Source of the DNA: Candidatus Saccharimonadota bacterium
GTDB lineage: Bacteria > Bacteroidota > Bacteroidia > Cytophagales > Amoebophilaceae
NCBI RefSeq assembly: GCF_936981045.1
Contig: NZ_OW441264.1
Span: 1,105,203 to 1,137,202, forward strand
DNA: 32,000 nucleotides
Direction: 5' to 3'
The notes under the pieces are model-generated. The model was not told where the DNA came from. It was given only the letters and a program-made list of their open reading frames with translations, and ran no database searches. This document shows positions 6,723 through 29,428 of the stretch, piece after piece. A program made the position numbers and the translations under genes. Each line of letters begins with the position of its first letter. Within the stretch, counting starts at the first letter, position 1.

Positions 6723-6749
6723 TTTTCGTTAGTAACGTCTTTTCTTTTA

Positions 6750-6991
6750 AACGTGAGTTCGGGATTATATTATTTTTTCATTTGATAATCAATATTAATA
6801 AAAATTTATAAAATTTGTTTTATAGACAGTTAAATAGGTAGTTGAATAACAAATAATTCTGATAATCAGTTTATTATATATATTATATTTATAAAATTAG
6901 ATATAAAAACTTGTTAAATAGGTGCAAATATTAACTAAATAATTGATATTAAATTGTTGTAAATCAGTCAAATAAATCCTGAACTCACGTT
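6750..6991 (+). mobile_element. AT-rich MITE family A, copy 1 (IS982-type TIRs)
   Basis: TIRs AACGTGAGTTCGGGAT ... ATCCTGAACTCACGTT. Near-identical to 29041-29281 and to the reverse complement of 11924-12165 and 21701-21932. Confidence 0.85.
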
Positions 6992-7360
6992 CATTGTTTA
7001 CCCATTCCCTTCTCATCCCAAGGTACGTTCAGTTTTCCCGAATACGGCGGTCCGACAGTCTTCTTCATAAACCTTGCACAACTTTCTCAGGATACTTAAT
7101 CATTCCACTACCAATGTACAACATCCCCATTGTATAGAGTTTGCTATTGGGATAGCTTTGCCACCCACACCCACGGCCTTTTCTTCTATGGGTTAAGTAT
7201 CTGCGAAATCGGTTATTAATAAAGTCCTGCAATCTAACAAAAGCTTCACTGGAATTCATATGTTTAAAATAGTTAACCCATCCTAACACTACTGGTTTTA
7301 TTTGCTCGATGAATGCTTGAGGTTTGATTGGTGCTTTTCTACAAGTCAGGTATTTTAGTC
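6992..7360 (-). mobile_element. Group II intron 3' remnant (maturase C-terminus plus degenerate domain V-like hairpin)
   Basis: Maturase/X-domain ORF, followed on the minus strand by CCGUAU-UCGG-GAAAA-CUGA-AC-GUAC (about 7017-7054). This resembles domain V (AC bulge, GNRA-like loop), but the base of the stem is imperfect. The 5' side is cut by a solo IS6 terminus at 7361. Confidence 0.55.
7065..7358 (-). pseudogene. Group II intron reverse transcriptase/maturase, C-terminal fragment
   Basis: In-frame LKYLTCRKAPIKPQAFIEQIKPVVLGWVNYFKHMNSSEAFVRLQDFINNRFRRYL.. with the GWxNYF maturase signature. No RT domain lies upstream. Confidence 0.6.
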
Positions 7361-7377: not shown

Positions 7378-7463
7378 TATACTGGACTGAAAAATTCGGA
7401 CAAAAAAGATGATAATTTGTTTCTGTATATTTTAGTTTAATGATATTAAAATAGAGCTATCTA

Positions 7464-7585
7464 ATGGTCAGAAATAAGATTAGAAATTTTAGTTCGGAAG
7501 AAAAGACTAAAATAGTATTCGCTTTACTAAAAGAAGATTGAACACTAGTTGAATTATCGTCCAAATAGGGAGTAACGAGTAAAAC
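7464..7585 (+). pseudogene. IS3-family OrfA-like fragment with in-frame stops
   Basis: MVRNKIRNFSSEEKTKIVFALLKED*TLVELSSK*GVTSKT resembles the HTH N-terminus of IS3 OrfA (..R.FS.EFK..IV......S..E...KYGV). It is cut by IS6 copy A. Confidence 0.4.
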
Positions 7586-8418
7586 GGTTCTGTCGCGTTT
7601 ATTCTAAAAAATGATTATTTTAGTATCGGTATTTAAAAAAGTAGTTATTATGTTTAATATTTCTCCCGAGTTATTACCATATTTTAAAGGTTATTGTTCT
7701 TCATCAGAAGTCATCCTGTTATTTGTATACATGAAGTGTCGTTTTTCCTTGAGCTATAGAGATTTGGAAGAGATGATGCGTATGAGAGGCGCAAAAGTTG
7801 ATCATTCTACGCTACAGAGATGGGTTATTAAGTTTGTTCCTCTGATAGATAAAGCAGTAAGAAAAAGAAAACGACCAGTTGGTAGTAGTTGGAGAATGGA
7901 TGAAACCTATGTTAAACTAAACGGGAAGTGGATCTATTTATATAGAGCAGTAGATCGTTATGGTGATACAGTTGACTTTTTTCTATCTGAGCATAGAGAC
8001 AAGTCTTCAACGCTTTCTTTTTTTCGAAAGGCGATCACAGAAAATAATATTCCTAAGAAAGTAGTAATTGACAAAAGCGGTAGTAATAAAGCTGCCCTTG
8101 ATGCGATCAATACAGATCTTGATCAAGATCATACCATTCAAATATTGCAAAACAAATATTTGAATAATAGAGTTGAACAAGATCATAGGTTTATCAAAAA
8201 ACGGATAAAACCTATGCTGGGTTTTAAGAATTTTTATTCTGCTTCCATTACTATTTCAGGGATAGAAAACATTCGTATGATTCAAAAAGGACAAGTAAGA
8301 GGAGCTAAAAATCATCTTTCTACTTTTGAGAACTTTGCTATCTTAATGGCCGCATAATATCCAAAATTTGACTTAAACGAAAAACCTATACTAAGAAAAC
8401 TATAGACGCGACAGAACC
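7586..8418 (+). mobile_element. IS6-family insertion sequence, copy A (833 bp)
   Basis: Termini GGTTCTGTCGCGTTTAT (IRL) and rc GGTTCTGTCGCGTCTAT (IRR), with a single DDE ORF. Flanks AGTAAAAC / CTAATGCC, so no TSD. Confidence 0.9.
7611..8357 (+). CDS. IS6 family DDE transposase (copy A)
   Basis: DDE triad context WRMDETYVK (D97), VVIDKSGSN (D154), NNRVEQDHRFIKKR (E189). The real start may be M14 (7650), by analogy with IS26 Tnp length. Confidence 0.9.
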   Translation: MIILVSVFKKVVIMFNISPELLPYFKGYCSSSEVILLFVYMKCRFSLSYRDLEEMMRMRGAKVDHSTLQRWVIKFVPLIDKAVRKRKRPVGSSWRMDETYVKLNGKWIYLYRAVDRYGDTVDFFLSEHRDKSSTLSFFRKAITENNIPKKVVIDKSGSNKAALDAINTDLDQDHTIQILQNKYLNNRVEQDHRFIKKRIKPMLGFKNFYSASITISGIENIRMIQKGQVRGAKNHLSTFENFAILMAA

Positions 8419-8453
8419 CTAATGCCAGACGTATAGTTTAGGACTTTAGCATT

Positions 8454-9317
8454 TTAAATATGCCGTTCTGCATGGTAAGAGGAACGTACAAGTGGACCTG
8501 ACTCCACATAAGAAAAGCCACGCTTGAGCGCCTCATTTTTAAAATGCGCAAATTTATCTGGATGTACGAAAGTAGCCACTTCAAGATGTTGCTTAGTAGG
8601 TTGTAGATATTGACCTAGCGTTAAAACATCCAAACCATTCTCCAGAAGGTCATCCATAACTTGATAGACCTCCGCATCTGTTTCGCCTAATCCGAGCATA
8701 ATACCCGATTTAGATCGTTTGCCATATGCTTTAATTCGTCTAAGTTGCTCTAAGCTGCGTGCATACTTAGCCTGTGGACGGACTGTTTTATACAGTCTTT
8801 CTACAGTTTCCATATTGTGAGAGACAACCTCTTGACCCGAACTAATCATCCGCTCTAGTGCCCACCAAATCGCCTTAACATCTGGAATTAAGGTTTCTAT
8901 AGTGATCGAGGGATTCAAGGCCTTGACCTCCTTAACGGTTTGATACCAAATTTCTGCGCCACAGTCCTTTAGTTCGTCTCTATTTACCGAAGTAATAACC
9001 GCATGTTTAACCCCCATTAGATGAATCGCTTGTGCAACTCGTTTCGGTTCTTCCTTATCATAAACAGTAGGTCTGCCAGTAGCTACCGCACAAAAGCCAC
9101 AACTTCGCGTGCAAATATTACCCAATATCATAAAAGTAGCCGTACCTACTCCCCAACATTCACCCATATTGGGACAGTTACCACTGGTGCAAATGGTGTG
9201 TAGCTTGTGTTGATCTACTATATCACGTACAGTGATATAGTGCTTACCTATCGGTAATTTAACCCGCAACCAATCTGGACGTTGAGTAGTTGTAGTCGGT
9301 GAGGTTTTTTGTTTCAT
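8454..9317 (-). CDS. lipA: Lipoyl synthase (radical SAM)
   Basis: N-terminal cluster CxxxxCxxxxxC ([12 protein letters not shown]) and radical-SAM CTRSCGFC. Conserved C-terminal RSSYHA. Confidence 0.95.
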
Positions 9318-9323
9318 GACAAT

Positions 9324-10156
9324 GGTTCTGTCGCGTCTATAGTTTTCTTAGTATAGGTTTTTCGTTTAAGTCAAATTTTGGATATTATGCGGCCATTAAG
9401 ATAGCAAAGTTCTCAAAAGTAGAAAGATGATTTTTAACTCCTCTTACTTGTCCTTTTTGAATCATACGAATGTTTTCTATCCCTGAAATAGTAATGGAAG
9501 CAGAATAAAAATTCTTAAAACCCAGCATAGGTTTTATCCGTTTTTTGATAAACCTATGATCTTGTTCAACTCTATTATTCAAATATTTGTTTTGCAATAT
9601 TTGAATGGTATGATCTTGATCAAGATCTGTATTGATCGCATCAAGGGCAGCTTTATTACTACCGCTTTTGTCAATTACTACTTTCTTAGGAATATTATTT
9701 TCTGTGATCGCCTTGCGAAAAAAAGAAAGCGTTGAAGACTTGTCTCTATGATCAGATAGAAAAAAGTCAACTGTATCACCATAACGATCTACTGCTCTAT
9801 ATAAATAGATCCACTTCCCGTTTAGTTTAACATAGGTTTCATCCATTCTCCAACTACTACCAACTGGTCGTTTTCTTTTTCTTACTGCTTTATCTATCAG
9901 AGGAACAAACTTAATAACCCATCTCTGTAGCGTAGAATGATCAACTCTTGCGCCTCTCATACGCATCATCTCTTCCAAATCTCTATAGCTCAAGGAAAAA
10001 CGACACTTCATGTATACAAATAACAGGATGACTTCTGATGAAGAACAATAACCTTTAAAATATGGTAATAACTCGGGAGAAATATTAAACATAATAACTA
10101 CTTTTTTAAATACCGATACTAAAATAATCATTTTTTAGAATAAACGCGACAGAACC
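9324..10156 (-). mobile_element. IS6-family insertion sequence, copy B (833 bp)
   Basis: Same termini as copy A. The IRR end lies 6 bp from the lipA ATG. The IRL end interrupts an IS982-like element. Confidence 0.9.
9385..10131 (-). CDS. IS6 family DDE transposase (copy B)
   Basis: 248 aa. Differs from copy A only at K62R, E127D and A232V. Confidence 0.9.
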   Translation of the reverse strand: MIILVSVFKKVVIMFNISPELLPYFKGYCSSSEVILLFVYMKCRFSLSYRDLEEMMRMRGARVDHSTLQRWVIKFVPLIDKAVRKRKRPVGSSWRMDETYVKLNGKWIYLYRAVDRYGDTVDFFLSDHRDKSSTLSFFRKAITENNIPKKVVIDKSGSNKAALDAINTDLDQDHTIQILQNKYLNNRVEQDHRFIKKRIKPMLGFKNFYSASITISGIENIRMIQKGQVRGVKNHLSTFENFAILMAA

Positions 10157-10280
10157 AATTTTTCTACATTCATAACTGGCTCCTTTGGATAATCTGGTTA
10201 GTATTTTTTTATCTCCAAATTTAAAACACAAAGGAGCTTTTTAAAGCTATTTTTTAACAAGCTAATCCCGAACTCAGGTT
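10157..10280 (-). mobile_element. IS982-like element, left-end fragment (IRL to codon 6 of transposase)
   Basis: rc reads AACCTGAGTTCGGGATTAGCTTG...ATGAATGTAGAAAAATT. One SNP from the copies at 21523 and 22373. Truncated by IS6 copy B. Confidence 0.8.
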
Positions 10281-10296
10281 ATATCGCAAATTGAAG

Positions 10297-10929
10297 TTAT
10301 CTATCCCCAGACAGTATGGTAGCAGACAATAAGCCTATTGCTATGCCCAATAATGCACCACAAATCACATCCAAAGGGTAATGCATGCCTCCATAGATTC
10401 TTCCGTAAGAGATAAGCGTAGCCCATGGAAAGAATAAATAGGTATATTTATACCTTTTTCTTAAAGATTTCCAGAAAAATATTGCAAATGCAAAAGTATT
10501 GCTTGCGTGAGATGAAGGAAATCCATACAGGCCTATATGTGCTCCCACTAAGTGAATAGGTGGTAAGTTGGGTGCATAACATGGACGATACCTTGCAAAA
10601 AAAGGCTTCAATAAAGAAGAAGTAGATTGGTCAGCAATAAGAATGGCTAGGCTCAATGATAAGAGGCCCCGCCACCCTAGATTTGTTTTGATGAAAAAAA
10701 ATAAAAAAAGATACAACGGGATCCAAAAAGTTGTACAGGTGATCCACTTAAAAAGTAGGTCCATAGATGGATGAGAAACGTTATTTAATATAAAAAATAA
10801 TGCCTGGTCTAACGCTTTGATAGGTGTAAGCATCATCGACAATATGCAAAGTACCCAGGTCCGGGATTGAACCGGCACGATGTCACTATCATTGGCCTTT
10901 GCGACCAGCCCATCTGCCAATTCCGCCAC
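10297..10929 (-). CDS. PAP2-family phosphatase (phosphatidic acid / undecaprenyl-diphosphate phosphatase-like)
   Basis: Tripartite PAP2 motif: KPFFARYRP, PSSHAS, GRIYGGMHYPLD. The start may be the internal MM at about 10836. Confidence 0.8.
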   Translation of the reverse strand: MAELADGLVAKANDSDIVPVQSRTWVLCILSMMLTPIKALDQALFFILNNVSHPSMDLLFKWITCTTFWIPLYLFLFFFIKTNLGWRGLLSLSLAILIADQSTSSLLKPFFARYRPCYAPNLPPIHLVGAHIGLYGFPSSHASNTFAFAIFFWKSLRKRYKYTYLFFPWATLISYGRIYGGMHYPLDVICGALLGIAIGLLSATILSGDR

Positions 10930-10948: not shown

Positions 10949-11875
10949 TTATATTACATCCGGCTGCAAATAAAAACTTTGCAAGCGTTGTATTTCTTTT
11001 GTCCACATGGTTGCACCATTGGGTGTTTCTAAATATTTAGGAATCATCCGAAGTTTTGGATGCTGCATGATGGTTTGAAAACAAGCCATCCCTATTTCCC
11101 CATTGCCTAAGTTAGCATGTCGGTCCTTTCTTGAACCAAGTGGCGTCATAGAGTCATTCACATGTAGGGCATAGAGATGGTGTAGACCAACGATTGATTC
11201 AAATTTGGTCAATGTATCCTCCCATCTATCAAGGGTACGAATGTCATACCCTGCTGCAAAAATATGACAAGTATCGATACAAACCCCAATAGGAACTACT
11301 TCTTTGACTCGATCGATTATATAGGCCAACTGTTCAAAGGAATGGCCAACCGTAGAGCCTTGACCTGCGGTGGTTTCTACCAGCAAACGTAAAGTCGTTT
11401 CTTGTTGGAAAAGTGGCTTAAGTGCCCATAAACTTTCCACAATTCGGTCTAAACAAGCTTCCATGCTATCGCCCGTTGCAGCACCTGGATGAAAGTTTAA
11501 ATAATTGATTTTTAAAGCTAAACAACGTGTTACTTCTTCCACAAAAGCGTTACGACTTTTTGCCAACAACGGTTCTTTGTTAGAACCAAGGTTGATCAGA
11601 TAACTCGCATGGCTCATCACCTGTTTCATAGAGGTAGTCTCTAGTGCATGGTGCCATCCCTCTAGCGCTACTTTATTCGGTAGTTTACCTACCCATTGGC
11701 GTTGATTATTGGTAAAAAGTTGTATAGTAGTCGCACCTATTGCTGCACCATGCAGTAACGCATTGTGGAGCCCCCCTTGGGTAGAGGTATGGGCACCAAT
11801 CAATGGTACAGTGGCATCTATTTCTGTCGTTATCTCTACCATATAGGGTGTGGGTTTAGTGATATCTAGAAGCAT
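10949..11875 (-). CDS. nfo: Endonuclease IV (AP endonuclease family 2)
   Basis: IGAHTS, HASYLINL, FHPG, ETTAGQGSTVG, CIDTCHIFAAGYD, HVNDS..GSRKDRH. The start may be the downstream ATG at 11842. Confidence 0.9.
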   Translation of the reverse strand: MLLDITKPTPYMVEITTEIDATVPLIGAHTSTQGGLHNALLHGAAIGATTIQLFTNNQRQWVGKLPNKVALEGWHHALETTSMKQVMSHASYLINLGSNKEPLLAKSRNAFVEEVTRCLALKINYLNFHPGAATGDSMEACLDRIVESLWALKPLFQQETTLRLLVETTAGQGSTVGHSFEQLAYIIDRVKEVVPIGVCIDTCHIFAAGYDIRTLDRWEDTLTKFESIVGLHHLYALHVNDSMTPLGSRKDRHANLGNGEIGMACFQTIMQHPKLRMIPKYLETPNGATMWTKEIQRLQSFYLQPDVI

Positions 11876-11923: not shown

Positions 11924-12165
11924 AACGTGAGTTCGGGATTTATTTGACTGATTTACAACAATTTAATATCAATTATTTAGTTAATATTTGCACCTATTTA
12001 ACAAGTTTTTATATCTAATTTTATAAATATAATATATATAATAAACTGATTATCAGAATTATTTTTTATTCAACTACCTATTTAACTGTCTATAAAACAA
12101 ATTTTATAAATTTTTATTAATATTGATTTTCAAATGAAAAAATAATCTAATCCCGAACTCACGTT
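11924..12165 (-). mobile_element. AT-rich MITE family A, copy 2
   Basis: AACGTGAGTTCGGGAT ... ATCCCGAACTCACGTT. If the TIR is taken as ACGTGAG, TAGTA flanks both sides (candidate 5-bp TSD). Lies in the divergent nfo/ppa intergenic region. Confidence 0.85.
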
Positions 12166-12301
12166 AGTAGGAAAAATTTAAGCACTGGCTTAGGTTTGTT
12201 ACTAGATTGCTAGCAAATTTGTAATTTATGTATTGTCTAGCCCATTAGACGATGAGGTCTAATAGGCATATTGCTAATTATGTATTTAAATCTGAAAGGG
12301 A

Positions 12302-15680: not shown

Positions 15681-15692
15681 GGTTCTGTCGCG
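15681..15692 (+). mobile_element. 12-bp solo IS6 terminus, 9 bp outside copy C
   Basis: GGTTCTGTCGCG is followed by GGTCTTTTG, then the complete IS end. It is preceded by AACCTGAGT, a truncated IS982/MITE-A TIR. Confidence 0.5.
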
Positions 15693-15701
15693 GGTCTTTT
15701 G

Positions 15702-16534
15702 GGTTCTGTCGCGTCTATAGTTTTCTTAGTATAGGTTTTTCGTTTAAGTCAAATTTTGGATATTATGCGGCCATTAAGATAGCAAAGTTCCCAAAAGTAG
15801 AAAGATGATTTTTAGCTCCTCTTACTTGTCCTTTTTGAATCATACGAATGTTTTCTATCCCTGAAATAGTAATGGAAGCAGAATAAAAATTCTTAAAACC
15901 CAGCATAGGTTTTATCCGTTTTTTGATAAACCTATGATCTTGTTCAACTCTATTATTCAAATATTTGTTTTGCAATATTTGAATGGTATGATCTTGATCA
16001 AGATCTGTATTGATCGCATCAAGGGCAGCTTTATTACTACCGCTTTTGTCAATTACTACTTTCTTAGGAATATTATTTTCTGTGATCGCCTTGCGAAAAA
16101 AAGAAAGCGTTGAAGACTTGTCTCTATGATCAGATAGAAAAAAGTCAACTGTATCACCATAACGATCTACTGCTCTATATAAATAGATCCACTTCCCGTT
16201 TAGTTTAACATAGGTTTCATCCATTTTCCAACTACTACCAATTGGTCGTTTTCTTTTTCTTACTGCTTTATCTATCAGAGGAACAAACTTAATAACCCAT
16301 CTCTGTAGCGTAGAATGATCAACTCTTGCGCCTCTCATACGCATCATCTCTTCCAAATCTCTATAGCTCAAGGAAAAACGACACTTCATGTATACAAATA
16401 ACAGGATAACTTCTGATGAAGAACAATAACCTTTAAAATATGGTAATAACTCGGGAGAAATATTAAACATAATAACTACTTTTTTAAATACCGATACTAA
16501 AATAATCATTTTTTAGAATAAACGCGACAGAACC
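15702..16534 (-). mobile_element. IS6-family insertion sequence, copy C (833 bp)
   Basis: Same termini as the other copies. Lies head to head with copy D. Confidence 0.9.
15763..16509 (-). CDS. IS6 family DDE transposase (copy C)
   Basis: 248 aa. Shares V90I, R95K and E240G with copy D. Confidence 0.9.
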   Translation of the reverse strand: MIILVSVFKKVVIMFNISPELLPYFKGYCSSSEVILLFVYMKCRFSLSYRDLEEMMRMRGARVDHSTLQRWVIKFVPLIDKAVRKRKRPIGSSWKMDETYVKLNGKWIYLYRAVDRYGDTVDFFLSDHRDKSSTLSFFRKAITENNIPKKVVIDKSGSNKAALDAINTDLDQDHTIQILQNKYLNNRVEQDHRFIKKRIKPMLGFKNFYSASITISGIENIRMIQKGQVRGAKNHLSTFGNFAILMAA

Positions 16535-16701
16535 GTTCCATTCGGGTTAAGGCGACCAAACTTAGAGACGATTTCTTGAGAACCAGGCAAGCGAACTGAG
16601 AAGCCATCTCCAGCAATAACTCTATAACCTCTCCATGTTCCATATGAGGTATCACCTTGATAAGCTGTTTGAAGGCTTAAATTCAATAATTCTTTAAATC
16701 C
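16535..16701 (-). pseudogene. IS4-family-like transposase internal fragment
   Basis: The minus strand reads GFKELLNLSLQTAYQGDTSYGTWRGYRVIAGDGFSVRLPGSQEIVSKFGRLNPNG. This resembles the W.G.R..A.DGS...LP first-D region of IS4-type DDE transposases. Confidence 0.35.
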
Positions 16702-17534
16702 GGTTCTGTCGCGTTTATTCTAAAAAATGATTATTTTAGTATCGATATTTAAAAAAGTAGTTATTATGTTTAATATTTCTCCCGAGTTATTACCATATTT
16801 TAAAGGTTATTGTTCTTCATCAGAAGTCATCCTGTTATTTGTATACATGAAGTGTCGTTTTTCCTTGAGCTATAGAGATTTGGAAGAGATGATGCGTATG
16901 AGAGGCGCAAGAGTTGATCATTCTACGCTACAGAGATGGGTTATTAAGTTTGTTCCTCTGATAGATAAAGCAGTAAGAAAAAGAAAACGACCAATTGGTA
17001 GTAGTTGGAAAATGGATGAAACCTATGTTAAACTAAACGGGAAGTGGATCTATTTATATAGAGCAGTAGATCGTTATGGTGATACAGTTGACTTTTTTCT
17101 ATCTGATCATAGAGACAAGTCTTCAACGCTTTCTTTTTTTCGCAAGGCGATCACAGAAAATAATATTCCTAAGAAAGTAGTAATTGACAAAAGCGGTAGT
17201 AATAAAGCTGCCCTTGATGCGATCAATACAGATCTTGATCAAGATCATACCATTCAAATATTGCAAAACAAATATTTGAATAATAGAGTTGAACAAGATC
17301 ATAGGTTTATCAAAAAACGGATAAAACCTATGCTGGGTTTTAAGAATTTTTATTCTGCTTCCATTACTATTTCAGGGATAGAAAACATTCGTATGATTCA
17401 AAAAGGACAAGTAAGAGGAGCTAAAAATCATCTTTCTACTTTTGGGAACTTTGCTATCTTAATGGCCGCATAATATCCAAAATTTGACTTAAACGAAAAA
17501 CCTATACTAAGAAAACTATAGACGCGACAGAACC
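16702..17534 (+). mobile_element. IS6-family insertion sequence, copy D (833 bp)
   Basis: Same termini as the other copies. The IRR end lies 27 bp upstream of the next gene's ATG. Confidence 0.9.
16727..17473 (+). CDS. IS6 family DDE transposase (copy D)
   Basis: 248 aa. V7I is shared with copy E. V90I/R95K/E240G are shared with copy C. Confidence 0.9.
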   Translation: MIILVSIFKKVVIMFNISPELLPYFKGYCSSSEVILLFVYMKCRFSLSYRDLEEMMRMRGARVDHSTLQRWVIKFVPLIDKAVRKRKRPIGSSWKMDETYVKLNGKWIYLYRAVDRYGDTVDFFLSDHRDKSSTLSFFRKAITENNIPKKVVIDKSGSNKAALDAINTDLDQDHTIQILQNKYLNNRVEQDHRFIKKRIKPMLGFKNFYSASITISGIENIRMIQKGQVRGAKNHLSTFGNFAILMAA

Positions 17535-17561
17535 GATCTTATTTCACTTTATTTTTTTGCC

Positions 17562-18779
17562 ATGTCCAATCCATTACCACCTTCCACTTCTGGCACGCAC
17601 AGATGGGCTAGTAGCGATTTACAGGTAGCTACTGAAGTAGTACATGCTGGTGTTAGTCCAGAATCACATACCGGTGCCATTCTTACACCTATTTTTCAAT
17701 CATCCGTATTTGTACAAGAATCAATTGAAACCTATCTAGCAAAGGGGCATTCCTATTCTGGTTCAAGAAATCCTACTGTTGCAGTACTTGAAGCCAAGAT
17801 TGCTACTTTGGAAAAAGCACAAACTGCCTATTGTTTTGGTTCAGGGGTGGCTGCCATTGTCACGACCATGGCAACTTTTTTACGCCATAGGGACCACTGT
17901 ATACTCTCAAATAGTTGTTATGCCACTACACAAGAAGTGGCACGTGACCTTTTTGGCCAACTTGGCGTAACCTGTTCTTTTGTAGATTTTACCAATCTAG
18001 CTGTAATAGAAGCTGCCATACAACCCAATACGAAAGTACTTTTTTCAGAGTATCCGACCAATCCAACGCTTACTTTAACCGATTTAGCTGCGGTTAGTAC
18101 ATTGGCCCAGCAAGTAGGTGCGAAACATGTTTGTGATAGTACACTGGCCTCGCCTATGGTGATTTGTCCATTAACATTTGGTGCAGATATAGTGATTCAA
18201 TCTACCACTAAATACTATGACGGACATAATATGACTATTGGTGGCGCAGCAGCTTGTGCATCTGCAGAAGATGGTCTTTCAATTTTTTCTTATAGGAATA
18301 GGCATGGGAGTATTATGAGTCCTATGGTTGCCTTTTTGACCTTACAATCTATCAAGACCATGCACTTACGCATACGGGAACAGTCTATAAATGCCGCGCA
18401 GATTGCCATATTTTTAGCAGGACATGCTAAGGTAGCAAAGGTGGGGTATCCGGGATTGGCGGATTTTCCGCAAAAATCATTGGCAGATAGACAACATAGT
18501 AATGGGCTACATGGTGGTATGTTATACTTTGTACTGAAAGGAGGAGCGGATGCAAGCAGCAAATTTATGAAGGCACTGCGTCGTCCATGGAGTTTTGGTG
18601 CCAATTTAGGTGGAGTAGAGAGTTTGATTACTTATCCTGCTGTAATGTCTAATGGGACAATGGATGCTATACAACTTCAATCCATTGGTATAAGCGAGGG
18701 TTTTGTACGCGTATCTTGTGGGATTGAAGATATCCAAGATCTTATTGATGCACTTGAAGCAACCTTTAATGCATGCTAA
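17562..18779 (+). CDS. PLP-dependent Cys/Met metabolism enzyme (cystathionine gamma-synthase / beta-lyase / methionine gamma-lyase family)
   Basis: VHAG....TGAILTPIFQSS.F, SGSRNPT, FGSGVAAI, YPTNPTL, and the PLP-lysine block QSTTKYYDGHNMTIGG. The exact subfamily cannot be assigned by eye. Confidence 0.85.
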   Translation: MSNPLPPSTSGTHRWASSDLQVATEVVHAGVSPESHTGAILTPIFQSSVFVQESIETYLAKGHSYSGSRNPTVAVLEAKIATLEKAQTAYCFGSGVAAIVTTMATFLRHRDHCILSNSCYATTQEVARDLFGQLGVTCSFVDFTNLAVIEAAIQPNTKVLFSEYPTNPTLTLTDLAAVSTLAQQVGAKHVCDSTLASPMVICPLTFGADIVIQSTTKYYDGHNMTIGGAAACASAEDGLSIFSYRNRHGSIMSPMVAFLTLQSIKTMHLRIREQSINAAQIAIFLAGHAKVAKVGYPGLADFPQKSLADRQHSNGLHGGMLYFVLKGGADASSKFMKALRRPWSFGANLGGVESLITYPAVMSNGTMDAIQLQSIGISEGFVRVSCGIEDIQDLIDALEATFNAC

Positions 18780-18787
18780 AAGAGATG

Positions 18788-19620
18788 GGTTCTGTCGCGT
18801 CTATAGTTTTCTTAGTATAGGTTTTTCGTTTAAGTCAAATTTTGGATATTATGCGGCCATTAAGATAGCAAAGTTCTCAAAAGTAGAAAGATGATTTTTA
18901 GCTCCTCTTACTTGTCCTTTTTGAATCATACGAATGTTTTCTATCCCTGAAATAGTAATGGAAGCAGAATAAAAATTCTTAAAACCCAGCATAGGTTTTA
19001 TCCGTTTTTTGATAAACCTATGATCTTGTTCAACTCTATTATTCAAATATTTGTTTTGCAATATTTGAATGGTATGATCTTGATCAAGATCTGTATTGAT
19101 CGCATCAAGGGCAGCTTTATTACTACCGCTTTTGTCAATTACTACTTTCTTAGGAATATTATTTTCTGTGATCGCCTTGCGAAAAAAAGAAAGCGTTGAA
19201 GACTTGTCTCTATGATCAGATAGAAAAAAGTCAACTGTATCACCATAACGATCTACTGCTCTATATAAATAGATCCACTTCCCGTTTAGTTTAACATAGG
19301 TTTCATCCATTCTCCAACTACTACCAACTGGTCGTTTTCTTTTTCTTACTGCTTTATCTATCAGAGGAACAAACTTAATAACCCATCTCTGTAGCGTAGA
19401 ATGATCAACTCTTGCGCCTCTCATACGCATCATCTCTTCCAAATCTCTATAGCTCAAGGAAAAACGACACTTCATGTATACAAATAACAGGATGACTTCT
19501 GATGAAGAACAATAACCTTTAAAATATGGTAATAACTCGGGAGAAATATTAAACATAATAACTACTTTTTTAAATATCGATACTAAAATAATCATTTTTT
19601 AGAATAAACGCGACAGAACC
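18788..19620 (-). mobile_element. IS6-family insertion sequence, copy E (833 bp)
   Basis: Same termini as the other copies. The IRR end lies 8 bp after the PLP-enzyme stop. The IRL end cuts a group II intron ORF. Confidence 0.9.
18849..19595 (-). CDS. IS6 family DDE transposase (copy E)
   Basis: 248 aa, with an intact DDE context. Confidence 0.9.
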   Translation of the reverse strand: MIILVSIFKKVVIMFNISPELLPYFKGYCSSSEVILLFVYMKCRFSLSYRDLEEMMRMRGARVDHSTLQRWVIKFVPLIDKAVRKRKRPVGSSWRMDETYVKLNGKWIYLYRAVDRYGDTVDFFLSDHRDKSSTLSFFRKAITENNIPKKVVIDKSGSNKAALDAINTDLDQDHTIQILQNKYLNNRVEQDHRFIKKRIKPMLGFKNFYSASITISGIENIRMIQKGQVRGAKNHLSTFENFAILMAA

Positions 19621-19970: not shown

Positions 19971-20548
19971 TTATTGATTATCATAGATATTAATATATCT
20001 ATAAAAACTTGCTCTAGACATTTTTAATGTTTTACAGATATCATTAATGGCCATACCATGATTCTTGTGCATGTTTTTAGCCATCAATACTTTAGGATCT
20101 GTAGAGGATACTTTTTTTCGGCCACCTTGCTTGCCACGCGCTTGTGCTGCTCTAAACCTGCTCGCGTTCGTTCCTGGACAAGACGGCGTTCGAATTGCGT
20201 TAAAGAGGAAAAGATATTGAAGATTAACTCTCCAGAAGCGGTTGTCGTATCAATAGCCCCGTCACACAAGAATCTAAATCCAATACCTTTTTGACATAAG
20301 TGTTCAATAAGATGAACTAAATGAGGCATCGAGCGACCAAGCCGATCTAATCGCCAGACTAATAGGGTATCACCCGAAGTTAAACTGGCCAAACATTTCT
20401 TTAACCCTGGACGTTCCGCTTTAGCACCTGAGATTTTTTCTATAAAAATCATATTTGTTGCAGAACCTGCTTTTGCAAGCGCGTCAACTTGAGGATGCAC
20501 TTCCTGATCTTGGGTGCTGACTCTGACATAGCCAACTAATTTTGCCAT
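19971..20548 (-). pseudogene. tnpR: Serine recombinase / Tn3-type resolvase with a 1-nt frameshift
   Basis: The N-terminus YVRVSTQDQ carries the catalytic Ser. After ..RTRAGLE the frame is lost near 20148-20152. The shifted frame continues AAQARGKQGGRKKVSSTDPKVLMAKNMHKNHGMAINDICKTLKMSRASFYRYINIYDNQ* (HTH domain). Confidence 0.8.
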
Positions 20549-20838
20549 ATTTTCTTAAAAATACTAAAAAAAATGAGTTTATAGTATTTTTTTTTTTACG
20601 ATCGCAATATGATACAACTAATGAGCTATTTTAGGAGGCTGTTTTAGGTGTCTCAATAAACGCTCGTTTGTTAAGATAAATCTATTCGCAAAATAGGGAA
20701 GCTTATTCAGGAATCTATAATGAATTTAGGGATGCAGTAGAAATTATAATTTTTGGCTGATTTTGTCCCTCTATTCCTAGTTGGTCAATTTGATATCAGT
20801 TGAGAAACCTTATTCCAGTATATTTAATCAAACTAAAC

Positions 20839-21522
20839 ATGCCACGCCGCTCAATCCTTTCTACCATTGATCGTGAAACTCTTCTGGCACTTCCAGATGA
20901 CAAAGAAACACTGATCCAGTATTATACGTTGGATACTCATGACTTATCTGTTATCCATCACCATCGTGGTTCGGCTAATCGACTGGGTTTCGCTGTACAA
21001 CTTTTTTACTTGCGATTTCCTGGCATCATTTTGGGAGTTGGTGAGCGCCCGTCTAACACCTTATTGCAAATAGTTGCATCTCAACTGAAGATTTCAGAAG
21101 AAAATTGGAATAAGTATGGTAAGAGCGAACAGACAAGAAGGGATCATTTGATTGATTTACAAGTTATTTTTAGATTTAAACCTTTCAAGATGAGTCACTA
21201 TAGAGAATCGTTGGATACCTTAACGGAGTTAGCCCTTCAGACAGACAAAGGGATCATTTTGGCCAGCTTGTTGATCGAAACTCTTCGGAAAAAGAGCATA
21301 ATCCTGCCAGTTATAAACGCTATAGACCGAATTTGCTCAGAATCTGTATCTCGTGCTAACCGGCGTATTTATGCATCGTTAACTGATTCTTTACTGCCAT
21401 CTCATCTCCTTCGTTTGGATGAACTGCTAAAGCGCAAAGAGGAGAGTAAAATGACTTGGCTGTCTTGGTTACGGAAATCTCCATCCAAGCCGAATTCACG
21501 TCATATGCTCGAACATATTAAT
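20839..21522 (+). pseudogene. tnpA: Tn3-family transposase, N-terminal ~228 aa only (DUF4158 region)
   Basis: MPRRSILSTIDRETLLALPDDKETLIQYYTLDTHDLSVIHHHRGSANRLGFAVQLFYLRFPG is the typical Tn3 TnpA N-terminus. The ORF is cut by the IS982-like IRL at 21523. It is divergent from tnpR. Confidence 0.8.
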
Positions 21523-21700
21523 AACCTAAGTTCGGGATTAGCTTGTTAAAAAATAGCTTTAAAAAGCTCCTTTGTGTTTTAAATTTGGAGATAAAAAAAT
21601 ACTAACCAGATTATCCAAAGGAGCCAGTTATGAATGTAGAAAAATTAGTTGAAATATATTATGCTGTTGATGAATTTTTCATAAAGTTTATGCCGTATAT
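21523..21700 (+). mobile_element. IS982-like element, left-end fragment (IRL to codon 24)
   Basis: AACCTAAGTTCGGGATTAGCTTG... ATG AAT GTA GAA.. up to ..CCGTATAT, then MITE-A copy 3. It is a perfect inverted copy of 22196-22373. Confidence 0.8.
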
Positions 21701-21932
21701 ACGTGAGTTCGGGATTTATTTAATTGATTTACAAAAATTTAATATCAATTATTTAGTTAATATTTGCACCTATTTAACAAGTTTTTATATCTAATTTTAT
21801 AAATATAATAAACTGATTATCAGAATTATTTATTATTCAACTACCTATTTAACTGTCTATAAAACAAATTTTATAAATTTTTATTAATATTGATTATCAA
21901 ATGAAAAAATAATCTAATCCCGAACTCACGTT
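21701..21932 (-). mobile_element. AT-rich MITE family A, copy 3 (232 bp, small internal deletion)
   Basis: ACGTGAGTTCGGGAT ... ATCCCGAACTCACGTT. It joins two oppositely oriented IS982-like fragments. Confidence 0.85.
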
Positions 21933-22266
21933 AATAACCTGTTTTTGTTTTAGAAAGACTTTGTGTAAAACAGTACAAGGGAACTAACGTTCTTTGGATC
22001 AGTTCTATAAATCTATTCTAGCTTACTAACTTTCCAAATTTACTAGAATGAAATTGCTGTAAATGAATATAATAAGACTTAAAATTTCTAAAACCAATCA
22101 CATGAAAGGCAATAAGAACAGTCATTATTTCACCCAAAGTTAATGAACAAGTTCTAGTGGGTTTTCTTTTAGAGTTGGTTAACAGTTGTTTTTCCATATA
22201 CGGCATAAACTTTATGAAAAATTCATCAACAGCATAATATATTTCAACTAATTTTTCTACATTCAT
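21933..22266 (-). pseudogene. IS982 family transposase, N-terminal fragment with in-frame stop
   Basis: MNVEKLVEIYYAVDEFFIKFMPYMEKQLL...LTLGEIMTVLIAFHVIGFRNFKSYY...FGKLVS*NRFIELIQRTLVPLYCFTQSLSKTKTGY. TAG at 22015-22017 sits where the family has Tyr. No DDE region is present. Confidence 0.7.
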
Positions 22267-22373
22267 AACTGGCTCCTTTGGATAATCTGGTTAGTATTTT
22301 TTTATCTCCAAATTTAAAACACAAAGGAGCTTTTTAAAGCTATTTTTTAACAAGCTAATCCCGAACTTAGGTT
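21933..22373 (-). mobile_element. IS982-like element, left ~440 bp (IRL plus 5' third of transposase)
   Basis: IRL at 22373 (rc AACCTAAGTTCGGGATTAGC). The 3' side is cut by MITE-A copy 3. Confidence 0.8.
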
Positions 22374-22424
22374 ATAAGCATGATGCAAGTCTATGTAGGC
22401 TATAGAGATTGATCTTGAGGTAAG

Positions 22425-26851: not shown

Positions 26852-26889
26852 CCTGCTTATAGCTGAACGAGTACTATATGGGTGCATAA

Positions 26890-26988
26890 AAAACAAGCCG
26901 AGTATCGCGCTGCTACAACCACCTTACCATTGCTTCTTTCCAGACCTGGGGGATTCAGTAGGAGCTAGCCGTACCGGCTTGCCCTATC
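26890..26988 (-). ncRNA. ffs: Signal recognition particle RNA (small bacterial 4.5S type)
   Basis: The minus strand reads ..CAAGCCGGUACGGCUAGCUCCUACUGAAUCCCCCAGGUCUGGAAAGAAGCAAUGGUAAGGUGGUUGUAGCAGCGCGAUACUCGGCUUG UUUUUU. It has the conserved helix-8 core (CCAGGUC.GGAA.GAAGCA..GGUAAGG) closed by CAAGCCG/CGGCUUG, then a T-tract. The ends are approximate. Confidence 0.7.
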
Positions 26989-27077
26989 AAGTTTAATACT
27001 TTTTGATCGAAATTAAAAAATAATTCAATAAAAAGTTAAGGATCCATTCAGCTACATGGCAATCCTACAAAATAAGG

Positions 27078-29040: not shown

Positions 29041-29281
29041 AACCTAAGTTCGGGATAGATTATTTTTTCATTTGATAATCAATATCAATAAAAATTTATA
29101 AAATTTATTTTATAGACAGTTAAATAGGTAGTTGAATAACAAATAATTCTGGTAATCAGTTTATTATATATATTATATTTATAAAATTAGATATAAAAAC
29201 TTGTTAAATAGGTGCAAATATTAACTAAATAATTGATATTAAATTGTTGTAAATCAGTCAAATAAACCCCGAACTCACGTT
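29041..29281 (+). mobile_element. AT-rich MITE family A, copy 4
   Basis: AACCTAAGTTCGGGATAG ... ACCCCGAACTCACGTT. Lies 76 bp upstream of the htpG ATG. Confidence 0.85.
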
Positions 29282-29428
29282 AGTAGTGAACTTTCTAGCT
29301 TTTACGCAACCTTACTAGCTATTGAGCGACAAAAACCATGCCAATGTATCATACACATGCTTTTATGACAGCCTATCTATTTGGGGGGATTATAAAATGC
29401 TGTTATCCAATCTATGACCTGATTGGTC

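Follow-up and report, generated by a model that had tools for sequence, protein, structure and literature searches.

Transcription running from an insertion sequence (IS) into the gene behind it has been described in 'Candidatus Amoebophilus asiaticus', where RT-PCR gave contiguous IS-to-downstream-gene transcripts at 9 of 10 loci (Schmitz-Esser et al. 2011, PMC3196728). ISCaa16, the sole IS6-family representative among the ten, was the locus at which no contiguous transcript was obtained. Some of the gaps between IS and gene were regarded by the authors as too short for a promoter, and expression was inferred by them to come from promoters inside the IS or from the IS's own promoter; the Bacteroidetes -7 promoter consensus is cited in the same paper as TAnnTTTG. 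IS6-family elements measure approximately 790-880 bp, carry a single transposase (tnp) ORF over most of their length and short inverted repeats (IRs) starting with GG, and can drive neighbouring genes (PMC7986276). In Cardinium cEper1 55.8% of the transposases are transcribed, and lipoate synthesis has been kept in all Cardinium but one (PMC12342168). The genome of Cardinium cOegib contains 300 IS copies and 30% mobile DNA, with many genes and ISs pseudogenised, and 109 copies of the element named ISCca2 in Table 1 of that study were published for the 1.14 Mb genome (PMC9769881). The host of this Cardinium is a spider (O. gibbosus).

The window, which is the whole 32,000-nucleotide stretch of DNA that was analysed, belongs to the IS-saturated cOegib chromosome and contained five 833-bp copies of ISCca2 (A to E). 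Two pairs of these copies each enclose a single gene, one of which is the lipoyl synthase gene lipA. The features referred to below are:

7586-8418, + strand: ISCca2 copy A, 833 bp, with tnp at 7650-8357 (235 aa)
8419-8453, no strand: spacer between the copy A IRR end and the lipA stop codon, 35 bp
8454-9317, - strand: lipA, lipoyl synthase, 287 aa, intact
9318-9323, no strand: remnant of the native lipA leader, 6 bp, GACAAT on the + strand and ATTGTC on the lipA strand
9324-10156, - strand: ISCca2 copy B, 833 bp, with tnp at 9385-10092 (235 aa)
9414-9421, - strand: candidate -7 box TACTTTTG, an exact TAnnTTTG at the 3' end of copy B tnp, 98 nt upstream of the lipA ATG
10153-10283, no strand: repeat of approximately 130 bp adjoining the copy B IRL end, with further copies at 22246-22376 and, inverted, at 21521-21650
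10297-10929, - strand: PAP2 phosphatase, on the same strand as copy B tnp and lipA
10949-11875, - strand: nfo-like endonuclease, on the same strand as copy B tnp and lipA
15702-16534, - strand: ISCca2 copy C, whose IRL end faces the copy D IRL end across a 167-bp spacer
16702-17534, + strand: ISCca2 copy D, 27 bp upstream of the trans-sulfuration gene and in the same orientation
17562-18779, + strand: PLP-dependent trans-sulfuration enzyme (Cys/Met metabolism family), 405 aa, PF01053 at 1e-106
18788-19620, - strand: ISCca2 copy E, convergent, with its IRR end 8 bp from the trans-sulfuration stop codon

The coordinates of the lipA box were re-measured on the sequence and agreed with an earlier note on this DNA, which had described gaps of 35 and 6 bp between the gene and the flanking elements. 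The transposase gene of copy B was found directly upstream of lipA and in the same orientation, again as claimed, with 67 nt separating the tnp stop codon from the lipA ATG. Copies A and B differed at four positions, forming inverted repeats of 99.5% identity that are 905 bp apart. Both of the inward-facing ends were IRR ends, as had been reported, but this is no separate coincidence, because any two inverted copies in +/- order give it automatically. Copy A points its IRR end towards the 3' end of lipA, and read-through from this copy into the gene would be antisense. The PAP2 and nfo-like genes lie on the lipA strand, giving host read-through into the IS as a possible third source of transcript. 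The repeat of approximately 130 bp beside copy B probably derives from the end of another IS; elsewhere it adjoins an IS982-like ORF. Rfam and tRNA scans gave no match in or near the lipA box.

The ISCca2 transposase matched the IS6 profile NF033587 with a score of 237.9 bits (cutoff 125) and the DDE_Tnp_IS240 domain PF13610 with a value of 4.9e-43. It shared 98-100% identity with Cardinium IS6 transposases from the host O. gibbosus and was 81% identical to a cBtQ1 transposase named 'IS6-like element ISCca2 family'. The repeat termini were GGTTCTGTCGCG...CGCGACAGAACC, with terminal IRs GGTTCTGTCGCGT at both ends that were identical at 13 of 13 positions, and a single tnp ORF occupied positions 65-772 of the 833 bp. 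The annotated transposase is 235 aa long and starts at 7650 in copy A and at 10092 in copy B, a length of 248 aa being the maximal ORF only. By transposase model, length, ORF and IRs, ISCca2 is a member of the IS6 family. A target site duplication (TSD) of 8 bp was sought at all five copies in the window and no matching 8-mers were found within or across copies; the ISCca2 copies of cBtQ1 likewise lacked TSDs. Since their absence is expected after intramolecular transposition or recombination between copies, it gives no argument against IS6 membership. In the genome 43 of the 109 ISCca2 copies are intact.

The copies in the window differed from one another by 2-7 nt (99.2-99.8% identity), and copies A and B were not each other's closest copies. 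The SNPs that distinguish the copies also bear on whether the arrangement could be absent from the organism and have arisen in assembly, as might be suspected in a genome with 300 IS copies and 30% mobile DNA. The genome was closed from long and short reads and manually curated (PMC9769881), and one long read readily covers the unit of 833 + 905 + 833 bp, so that an assembly artefact can be practically dismissed.

The boxed gene is lipoyl synthase. Its product matched the LipA equivalog TIGR00510 with 347.2 bits (cutoff 310.25) and contained the auxiliary-cluster motif CX4CX5C at residue 43, the radical-SAM motif CX3CX2C at residue 69 and the C-terminal RSSY motif at residue 278. In the protein search it was 83-94% identical to Cardinium LipA, and the best protein matches of both lipA and the trans-sulfuration gene were all from Cardinium or Amoebophilaceae. 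In the search of genome contigs, free-living Cytophagales and Saprospiraceae reached at most 78% identity among the matches listed. The GC content of lipA was 0.43 compared to 0.34 for tnp, lipA being host-like. Judged by homologue ranking and composition, lipA belongs to the Cardinium core genes and was inherited vertically. The horizontal origin for which a check had been proposed in the earlier note was ruled out by the same two observations, as the Cardinium homologues ranked top and the composition was that of the host.

That note had also proposed a search for an IS-free ancestral context of lipA, and this was found in four relatives, one of them a 94.6%-identical sister contig. In each the gene order is ABC-F (-), an intergenic region of 229-286 bp, and lipA (+). 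An upstream block, AATATTGTACAAGTTTTAATATATT, was conserved in all four of the relatives and was missing from the whole window. Homology between the window and the relatives stopped 6-11 nt before the lipA ATG on one side and at the stop codon on the other, and the 35-bp spacer at 8419-8453 showed no homology to the sequence that follows lipA in the relatives. The position of the IS/lipA junction is ambiguous between -6 and -11, since the two closest relatives carry a native GAACCATTyTC-ATG and the tip of the IS likewise reads GAACC. On this comparison the native promoter region of lipA is lost, and with 6 bp left any lipA transcript would have to start in copy B or pass through it.

A terminator scan of positions 7400-10400 revealed no terminator-like site. 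The tnp-lipA junction was unstructured, with an MFE of -4.7 kcal/mol (z = +0.3), and the hairpin or terminator potential of the junction between copy A and the lipA 3' end was no better than that of shuffled sequences (z = -0.56). The claim that a lipA transcript must begin in the IS or be read through from it was therefore upheld, given the absent native upstream region and the lack of a terminator between tnp and lipA. A sigma-70 scan gave as many matches in total as expected from shuffles and no outward promoter facing lipA in the IRR-proximal 60 nt. A hybrid promoter, with a -35 in the IR and a -10 in the flank, was rejected because the 6 bp from the IS tip to the ATG leave no room for it. 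An exact TAnnTTTG, TACTTTTG, is a candidate internal promoter. Approximately 0.5 matches to this consensus are expected by chance per IS strand, making it statistically unremarkable; no TTG was present at the right distance for a -33 element, and the match falls within coding sequence (S-T-F-E-N-F) that is also kept in the cBtQ1 ISCca2. The neighbours of ISCca2 in cBtQ1 were mostly pseudogene fragments or convergent ORFs, and the loci of that genome showed no systematic IS-to-gene co-orientation and no sign of promoter donation. For lipA itself, ISCca2 may plausibly act as a promoter donor or supply tnp read-through.

The second box reproduced the geometry of the first. Its recurrence at 16702-19620 had been pointed out in the earlier note and was confirmed here, the gaps measuring 27 and 8 bp. 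The trans-sulfuration protein was 100% identical to a cOegib protein and 82-90% identical to those of other Cardinium, and homology to the Nabis strain extended from 22 nt before the ATG to 1 nt past the stop codon. From these matches and its host-like composition, the gene is, like lipA, a vertically inherited Cardinium gene. The only non-IS DNA upstream is the 167-bp spacer between copies C and D, and the gene again lies downstream of a co-oriented tnp. The accompanying claim that chance is a poor explanation was overstated. With uniform placement of 109 copies in 1.137 Mb, approximately 9-13 pairs of neighbours within 0.9-1.3 kb of each other are expected genome-wide. Two such pairs in one 32-kb window have a probability of about 0.05, and three, including C/D, of about 0.005. 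Local clustering of ISCca2 is real, but boxes around one gene are in themselves to be expected in this genome. Both the clustering and the inverted pairs would be explained by IS6 intramolecular replicative transposition, which yields inversions and deletions.

A gene tightly flanked by two IS copies, found twice, recalls an IS6 compound or pseudo-compound transposon or translocatable unit that carries one metabolic gene, and the mobilisation of cargo by IS6 elements is well known (PMC7986276). The copies in both boxes are inverted, however, while pseudo-compound transposons of this family are 'invariably' direct, owing to the cointegrate mechanism (PMC7986276). Furthermore, the outer ends carried no 8-bp duplication (AGTAAAAC compared to AATTTTTC, and TTTAAATC compared to GCTTCACT), and A and B were not the closest pair of copies. 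Both cargo genes are single-copy, Cardinium-typical and found in IS-free conserved contexts in relatives. This alternative of the earlier note, in which the boxes would be transposon-like units, is thus highly improbable with inverted copies, no duplication and cargo that is not foreign; the lipA box is an ordinary by-product of IS proliferation rather than a one-gene transposon.

A different possibility is that lipA and the trans-sulfuration gene were orphaned by a very recent ISCca2 event and are now silent, in an early decay too young to show. The loss of the native promoter region would fit this, as would the 99.2-99.8% identity of the IS copies, which indicates recent activity or homogenisation, the reduction and extensive pseudogenisation of the genome, and the IS6-family locus without a contiguous transcript in Amoebophilus (PMC3196728). 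A dN/dS of 0.05-0.19 was obtained for lipA, and the value against the sister contig (0.19) was somewhat above those against more distant relatives (0.04-0.09). These ratios show lipA under purifying selection. The changes on the cOegib branch numbered 12 synonymous and 10 non-synonymous, compared to 15 and 8 on the branch of the IS-free sister, giving no non-synonymous excess (Fisher p = 0.55), and the gene contained no frameshift, stop or loss of a catalytic motif. If the insertion was as recent as the 2-7 nt between IS copies would suggest, only 1-2 substitutions are expected in lipA since, and the intact ORF and low dN/dS are consequently also compatible with recent silencing. Other observations argue against it: lipoate synthesis and pyruvate dehydrogenase are kept in nearly all Cardinium (PMC12342168), read-through from tnp into lipA is unblocked, and the co-oriented arrangement is found at two independent core genes. 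Overall, silencing of both genes is considered rather unlikely.

It is on balance probable, as read from these comparisons, that IS6 rearrangements isolated lipA and that the gene is expressed from an IS-derived transcript. The recently expanded ISCca2 would have left lipA as a single-gene island between two inverted copies. Within one replicon the replicative cointegrate chemistry of IS6 would give inversions, with an inverted second copy, or adjacent deletions, and homologous recombination among approximately 109 near-identical copies would have contributed further. These events would have erased everything upstream of lipA -6 to -11, including the ABC-F/lipA intergenic region, as well as everything downstream of the stop codon, trimming the flanks to the limits tolerated by selection. 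An origin of A/B, C/D or D/E by a one-step intramolecular inversion was tried and rejected, as no pairing shared an 8-bp signature; since the reverse-complement signature is missing, several events or recombination between copies would be needed. With no room left for a promoter, we infer that lipA is carried at the far end of a transcript derived from the IS. Most simply, this would be read-through of the copy B tnp mRNA, or nfo-PAP2 transcription entering the IS, and an alternative would be a start at the internal Bacteroidetes-type -7 box near the tnp 3' end. Translation of the Bacteroidetes type needs no Shine-Dalgarno sequence, so that the 6-bp leader would be no obstacle.

Inverted repeats of 833 bp and 99.5% identity, 905 bp apart, are also a good substrate for recombination, and RecA could in principle flip 8419-9323 as a switch that turns lipA on or off or changes its level. 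Orientation would matter if lipA relied on nfo-PAP2 read-through. A crossover within the IS, however, keeps lipA 6 bp from an IRR end and behind a chimeric co-oriented tnp, leaving IS-derived expression unchanged. For the same reason the earlier proposal that inversion would exchange the 6-bp and 35-bp spacers was wrong, as recombination in the IS arms keeps both junctions between IS and unique DNA. The closed long-read assembly showed no sign of both orientations and no site-specific invertase was associated with the locus, making such a switch very unlikely.

If lipA is expressed from ISCca2, as favoured above, the locus would be a clean natural case of a mobile element serving as the promoter of a housekeeping gene during reductive evolution, and IS proliferation would be tied to the rewiring of expression as well as to gene loss. 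A bolder and, in our view, doubtful extension is that retained cOegib core genes have come to depend on ISCca2 as an obligatory portable transcription unit after IS deletions erased their native promoters. Selection on lipA and the trans-sulfuration gene would then preserve the adjoining intact and transcribed IS, a kind of host-IS 'addiction' which would go some way to explaining the 43 intact copies among 109. It would also predict that, across the genome, intact genes co-oriented with the IS occur in excess within a few tens of bp of IRR ends. The lipA box is a good test locus.

When the locus is compared with known systems, the products of IS26-type intramolecular replicative transposition share with it the inverted pairs, like inward ends, missing TSDs and trimmed flanks, although they bear a diagnostic 8-bp reverse-complement signature that A/B, C/D and D/E lack. 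The IS6 pseudo-compound transposons and translocatable units Tn4352, Tn4003 and Tn610 likewise hold a short cargo between two IS6-family copies. The lipA box differs from them in having inverted rather than direct copies and no TSD, and in enclosing a core gene of vertical descent whose chromosomal surroundings are rearranged. The hybrid and outward promoters of IS26, IS257/IS431 and IS6100 (PMC7986276) belong to the same family, and there too the IS end abuts the start of the driven gene. In these classical cases the -35 lies in the terminal IR and the -10 in the flank, whereas lipA would need a fully internal promoter or tnp read-through; promoters are of the Bacteroidetes type here, and the gene is a housekeeping rather than a resistance gene. 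A further parallel is the sister genus Amoebophilus (PMC3196728), also a member of the Amoebophilaceae with an IS-saturated endosymbiont genome, in which the IS and the downstream gene are similarly co-oriented and separated by less than 50 bp, a distance that cannot hold a Bacteroidetes -33/-7 promoter. Because the principle has already been demonstrated there and for numerous resistance genes next to IS6-family elements, the lipA locus is of illustrative rather than conceptual value. The Amoebophilus case was shown by RT-PCR, while that of lipA is read from the sequence. Two features set lipA apart from it: at its 3' end the gene meets another ISCca2 copy in convergent orientation, and the ancestral promoter region without an IS is directly visible in four relatives.

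The repeat that bounds lipA was identified as ISCca2. Its transposases in the window share 98–100% identity with transposases of the IS6 family from this same genome and match the IS6 equivalog model, and ISCca2 is listed as an IS6-family element with 109 copies in cOegib, 43 of them intact (PMC9769881); the repeat is thus a named, published IS within a published genome. For the cOegib genome (OW441264), long reads gave a closed assembly that was curated by hand; mobile DNA makes up 29.6% of it (PMC9769881). Repeat finding and direct reading revealed five 833-bp copies, designated A–E, in the window.

405–478, +, tRNA-Gly(GCC)
585–668, +, tRNA-Leu(TAA)
7586–8418, +, ISCca2 copy A (repeat finding, direct reading)
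8454–9317, −, lipA (matches TIGR00510; both cysteine motifs and RSSY present)
9324–10156, −, ISCca2 copy B (repeat finding, direct reading)
15702–16534, −, ISCca2 copy C (repeat finding, direct reading)
16702–17534, +, ISCca2 copy D (repeat finding, direct reading)
17562–18779, trans-sulfuration gene, between copies D and E
18788–19620, −, ISCca2 copy E (repeat finding, direct reading)
26887–26991, −, small SRP RNA, Bacteroidales-type

The termini GGTTCTGTCGCGT...ACGCGACAGAACC are common to all five copies, which differ pairwise at only 2–7 positions. The closest pairs by sequence are B with E and C with D, so that A and B are not mutual closest copies. C and D differ least (2 positions); their IRL ends point toward one another, with a 167-bp spacer between them (16535–16701) that resembles a fragment of an orphan gene. 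No inversion signature linking this pair was found. A solitary ISCca2 terminus (GGTTCTGTCGCGG; window 15681–15701) lies exactly 8 bp (GTCTTTTG) beyond the IRR end of copy C and could be what is left of a neighbouring copy since deleted, or a trace of an aborted or targeted event. A comparable partial IR (GGCTCTGTCGGG) lies just beyond the IRL end of one ISCca2 copy in strain cBtQ1 (L090/L092). Two cBtQ1-type ISCca2 loci from two Cardinium samples (L091 and L096) have the same IRL flank and different IRR flanks, which indicates strain-level rearrangement at that copy.

The coordinates that the earlier note gave for both boxes were correct. The gap between lipA and the copy A IRR end is 35 bp, and that to the copy B IRR end is 6 bp; the copy B transposase gene (tnp), encoded on the lipA strand, has its stop codon 67 nt 5' of the lipA ATG. 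The second box, reported at 16702–19620, is real and consists of copy D, 27 bp, the trans-sulfuration gene, 8 bp and copy E. The statement that both inward ends are IRR is true, yet only restates the +/− order of the copies. The trans-sulfuration enzyme has homologues in Cardinium and Amoebophilaceae at at least 64% identity; the next-best are eukaryotic (protist, algal; 50–56%) and not bacterial, a hint of an ancient transfer between domains, with the Amoebophilaceae lineage as recipient or donor.

The ancestral context of lipA was found in all four IS-free relatives compared (Philonthus endosymbiont, Nabis endosymbiont, cEper1 and one Logan contig, the closest at 94.6% DNA identity), where a divergent ABC-F ATPase gene and a 229–286 bp intergenic region lie 5' of lipA. 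This region carries a conserved block (AATATTGTACAAGTTTTAATATATT) approximately 40–70 nt upstream of the ATG, of which no copy exists anywhere in the window with up to 3 mismatches allowed. In the window, homology to these relatives begins 6–11 nt before the lipA ATG and ends at the stop codon; that of the trans-sulfuration gene, which is conserved across Cardinium, to the Nabis strain runs from 22 nt before the ATG to 1 nt past the stop. The two closest relatives read GAACCATTyTC-ATG, and the 5-nt tip of the IS, GAACC, equals native lipA positions −11 to −7 (window 9318–9328; L088 2293–2303; L081 9990–10000). This 5-nt ambiguity or microhomology could reflect chance or a non-transposase joining event. 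The best LipA matches are all Cardinium (83–94%), followed by Amoebophilaceae and then Cytophagales, and the GC content of lipA is host-like (0.43, compared to 0.34 for tnp); lipA is therefore vertically inherited, and the horizontal origin raised earlier is rejected.

Chance had been considered a poor explanation for the boxes. Random placement of 109 copies in 1.137 Mb predicts approximately 9–13 neighbouring pairs within 0.9–1.3 kb genome-wide, so single-gene boxes as such are expected; the part that stands is the local clustering, since two or three close pairs within one 32-kb window are unusual (P ~0.05 and ~0.005, respectively). Intramolecular replicative transposition of IS6-family elements gives local clustering and inverted pairs (PMC7986276). 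No 8-bp target duplication was found on any of the five copies, target duplications were also absent from the cBtQ1 copies examined, and no cross-copy flank pairing among the five gave the reverse-complement signature of a single intramolecular inversion. The boxes do not behave as pseudo-compound transposons, another earlier proposal: the IS copies of such IS6 units are direct (PMC7986276), whereas those of both boxes are inverted, the outer ends lack duplications and the cargo is vertical. Nor would inversion exchange the lipA spacers, as had been supposed, because a crossover in the IS arms turns over the segment and its IS junctions as one; the 6-bp distance from lipA to an IRR end would persist, and only DNA beyond the IS would change. 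We infer that ISCca2 proliferated within one replicon by replicative steps that produce inversions and adjacent deletions, as described for the IS6 family (PMC7986276), and that its many identical copies then recombined with one another, which fits the absent duplications and signatures. Such rearrangements would trim dispensable flanks until halted by selection at ORF boundaries, which would explain four IS ends 6–35 bp from two retained genes.

Other mobile DNA surrounds the boxes. A repeat of ~230–250 bp in four copies (6740–6991, 11924–12175, 21701–21937 and 29056–29285; 94–97% identical, both orientations) fits the published MITECca01, with 169 copies in cOegib. Between a MITE copy and copy A lies a group II intron reverse transcriptase/maturase reduced to a C-terminal fragment (7065–7289). 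A Tn3-family remnant (20084–21549; 154-aa serine resolvase, −, and DUF4158 N-terminal TnpA fragment, +) is probably the single Tn3 copy, "ISCca15", listed for cOegib. A 130–187-bp repeat abuts the copy B IRL end (10153–10283) and recurs at 21514–21700 and 22196–22382 as the inverted ends of a ~870-bp element (21514–22382). Inside this element are a MITE insertion and a fragment of an IS982-like ORF, so that mobile elements are nested.

The claim that lipA has no room for its own promoter was borne out by the 6-bp gap and the loss of the conserved upstream block. This gap is too short for a promoter and likewise rules out an IS6-style hybrid (−35 in the IR, −10 in the flank). Any lipA transcript must therefore originate inside copy B or pass through it; tnp of that copy is co-oriented with lipA. 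No terminator-like site was found in 7400–10400, and the tnp–lipA junction is unstructured (MFE −4.7 kcal/mol, z = +0.3). At 98 nt 5' of the lipA ATG is TACTTTTG, which matches the Bacteroidetes −7 consensus exactly; it lies in coding sequence and is statistically not unusual. Further upstream of copy B are nfo and PAP2, on the lipA strand, from which transcription could read into copy B. In the second box the sole non-IS DNA upstream of copy D is the 167-bp spacer, bounded by outward-facing copy C, which leaves even less room for a transcript source outside the IS.

lipA is under purifying selection (dN/dS 0.05–0.19), with 12 synonymous and 10 non-synonymous changes on the cOegib branch and 15 and 8, respectively, on its IS-free sister (p = 0.55), and lipoate synthesis is kept in nearly all Cardinium (PMC12342168). 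The intactness of lipA may say little against its recent silencing by ISCca2 insertion, because near-identical copies allow a very recent event. Copy A would send antisense transcription into the lipA 3' end, as copy E would into the second gene, and no systematic gene-driving arrangement was found at the cBtQ1 ISCca2 loci. In Amoebophilus the single locus negative for IS-to-gene transcripts is that of its IS6-family element (PMC3196728). Given these points, IS-dependent expression of lipA is judged somewhat probable and recent silencing unlikely, with little left for other readings.

The lipA box is what IS6 proliferation ordinarily leaves behind in an IS-saturated endosymbiont genome, here a published one, and its documented IS-free ancestral promoter region makes it a convenient locus for testing IS-dependent transcription. 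Transcription of 55.8% of transposases has been recorded in Cardinium cEper1. Amoebophilus asiaticus offers a strong precedent: at 9 of 10 loci, RT-PCR gave contiguous transcripts running from the IS into the downstream gene, and some gaps were considered too short for −33/−7 promoters (PMC3196728). Whereas those transcripts were shown by RT-PCR, the lipA box is known from sequence, and it is a fresh example of a known phenomenon, the takeover of an upstream region by an IS with, we infer, IS-dependent transcription of the gene behind it.
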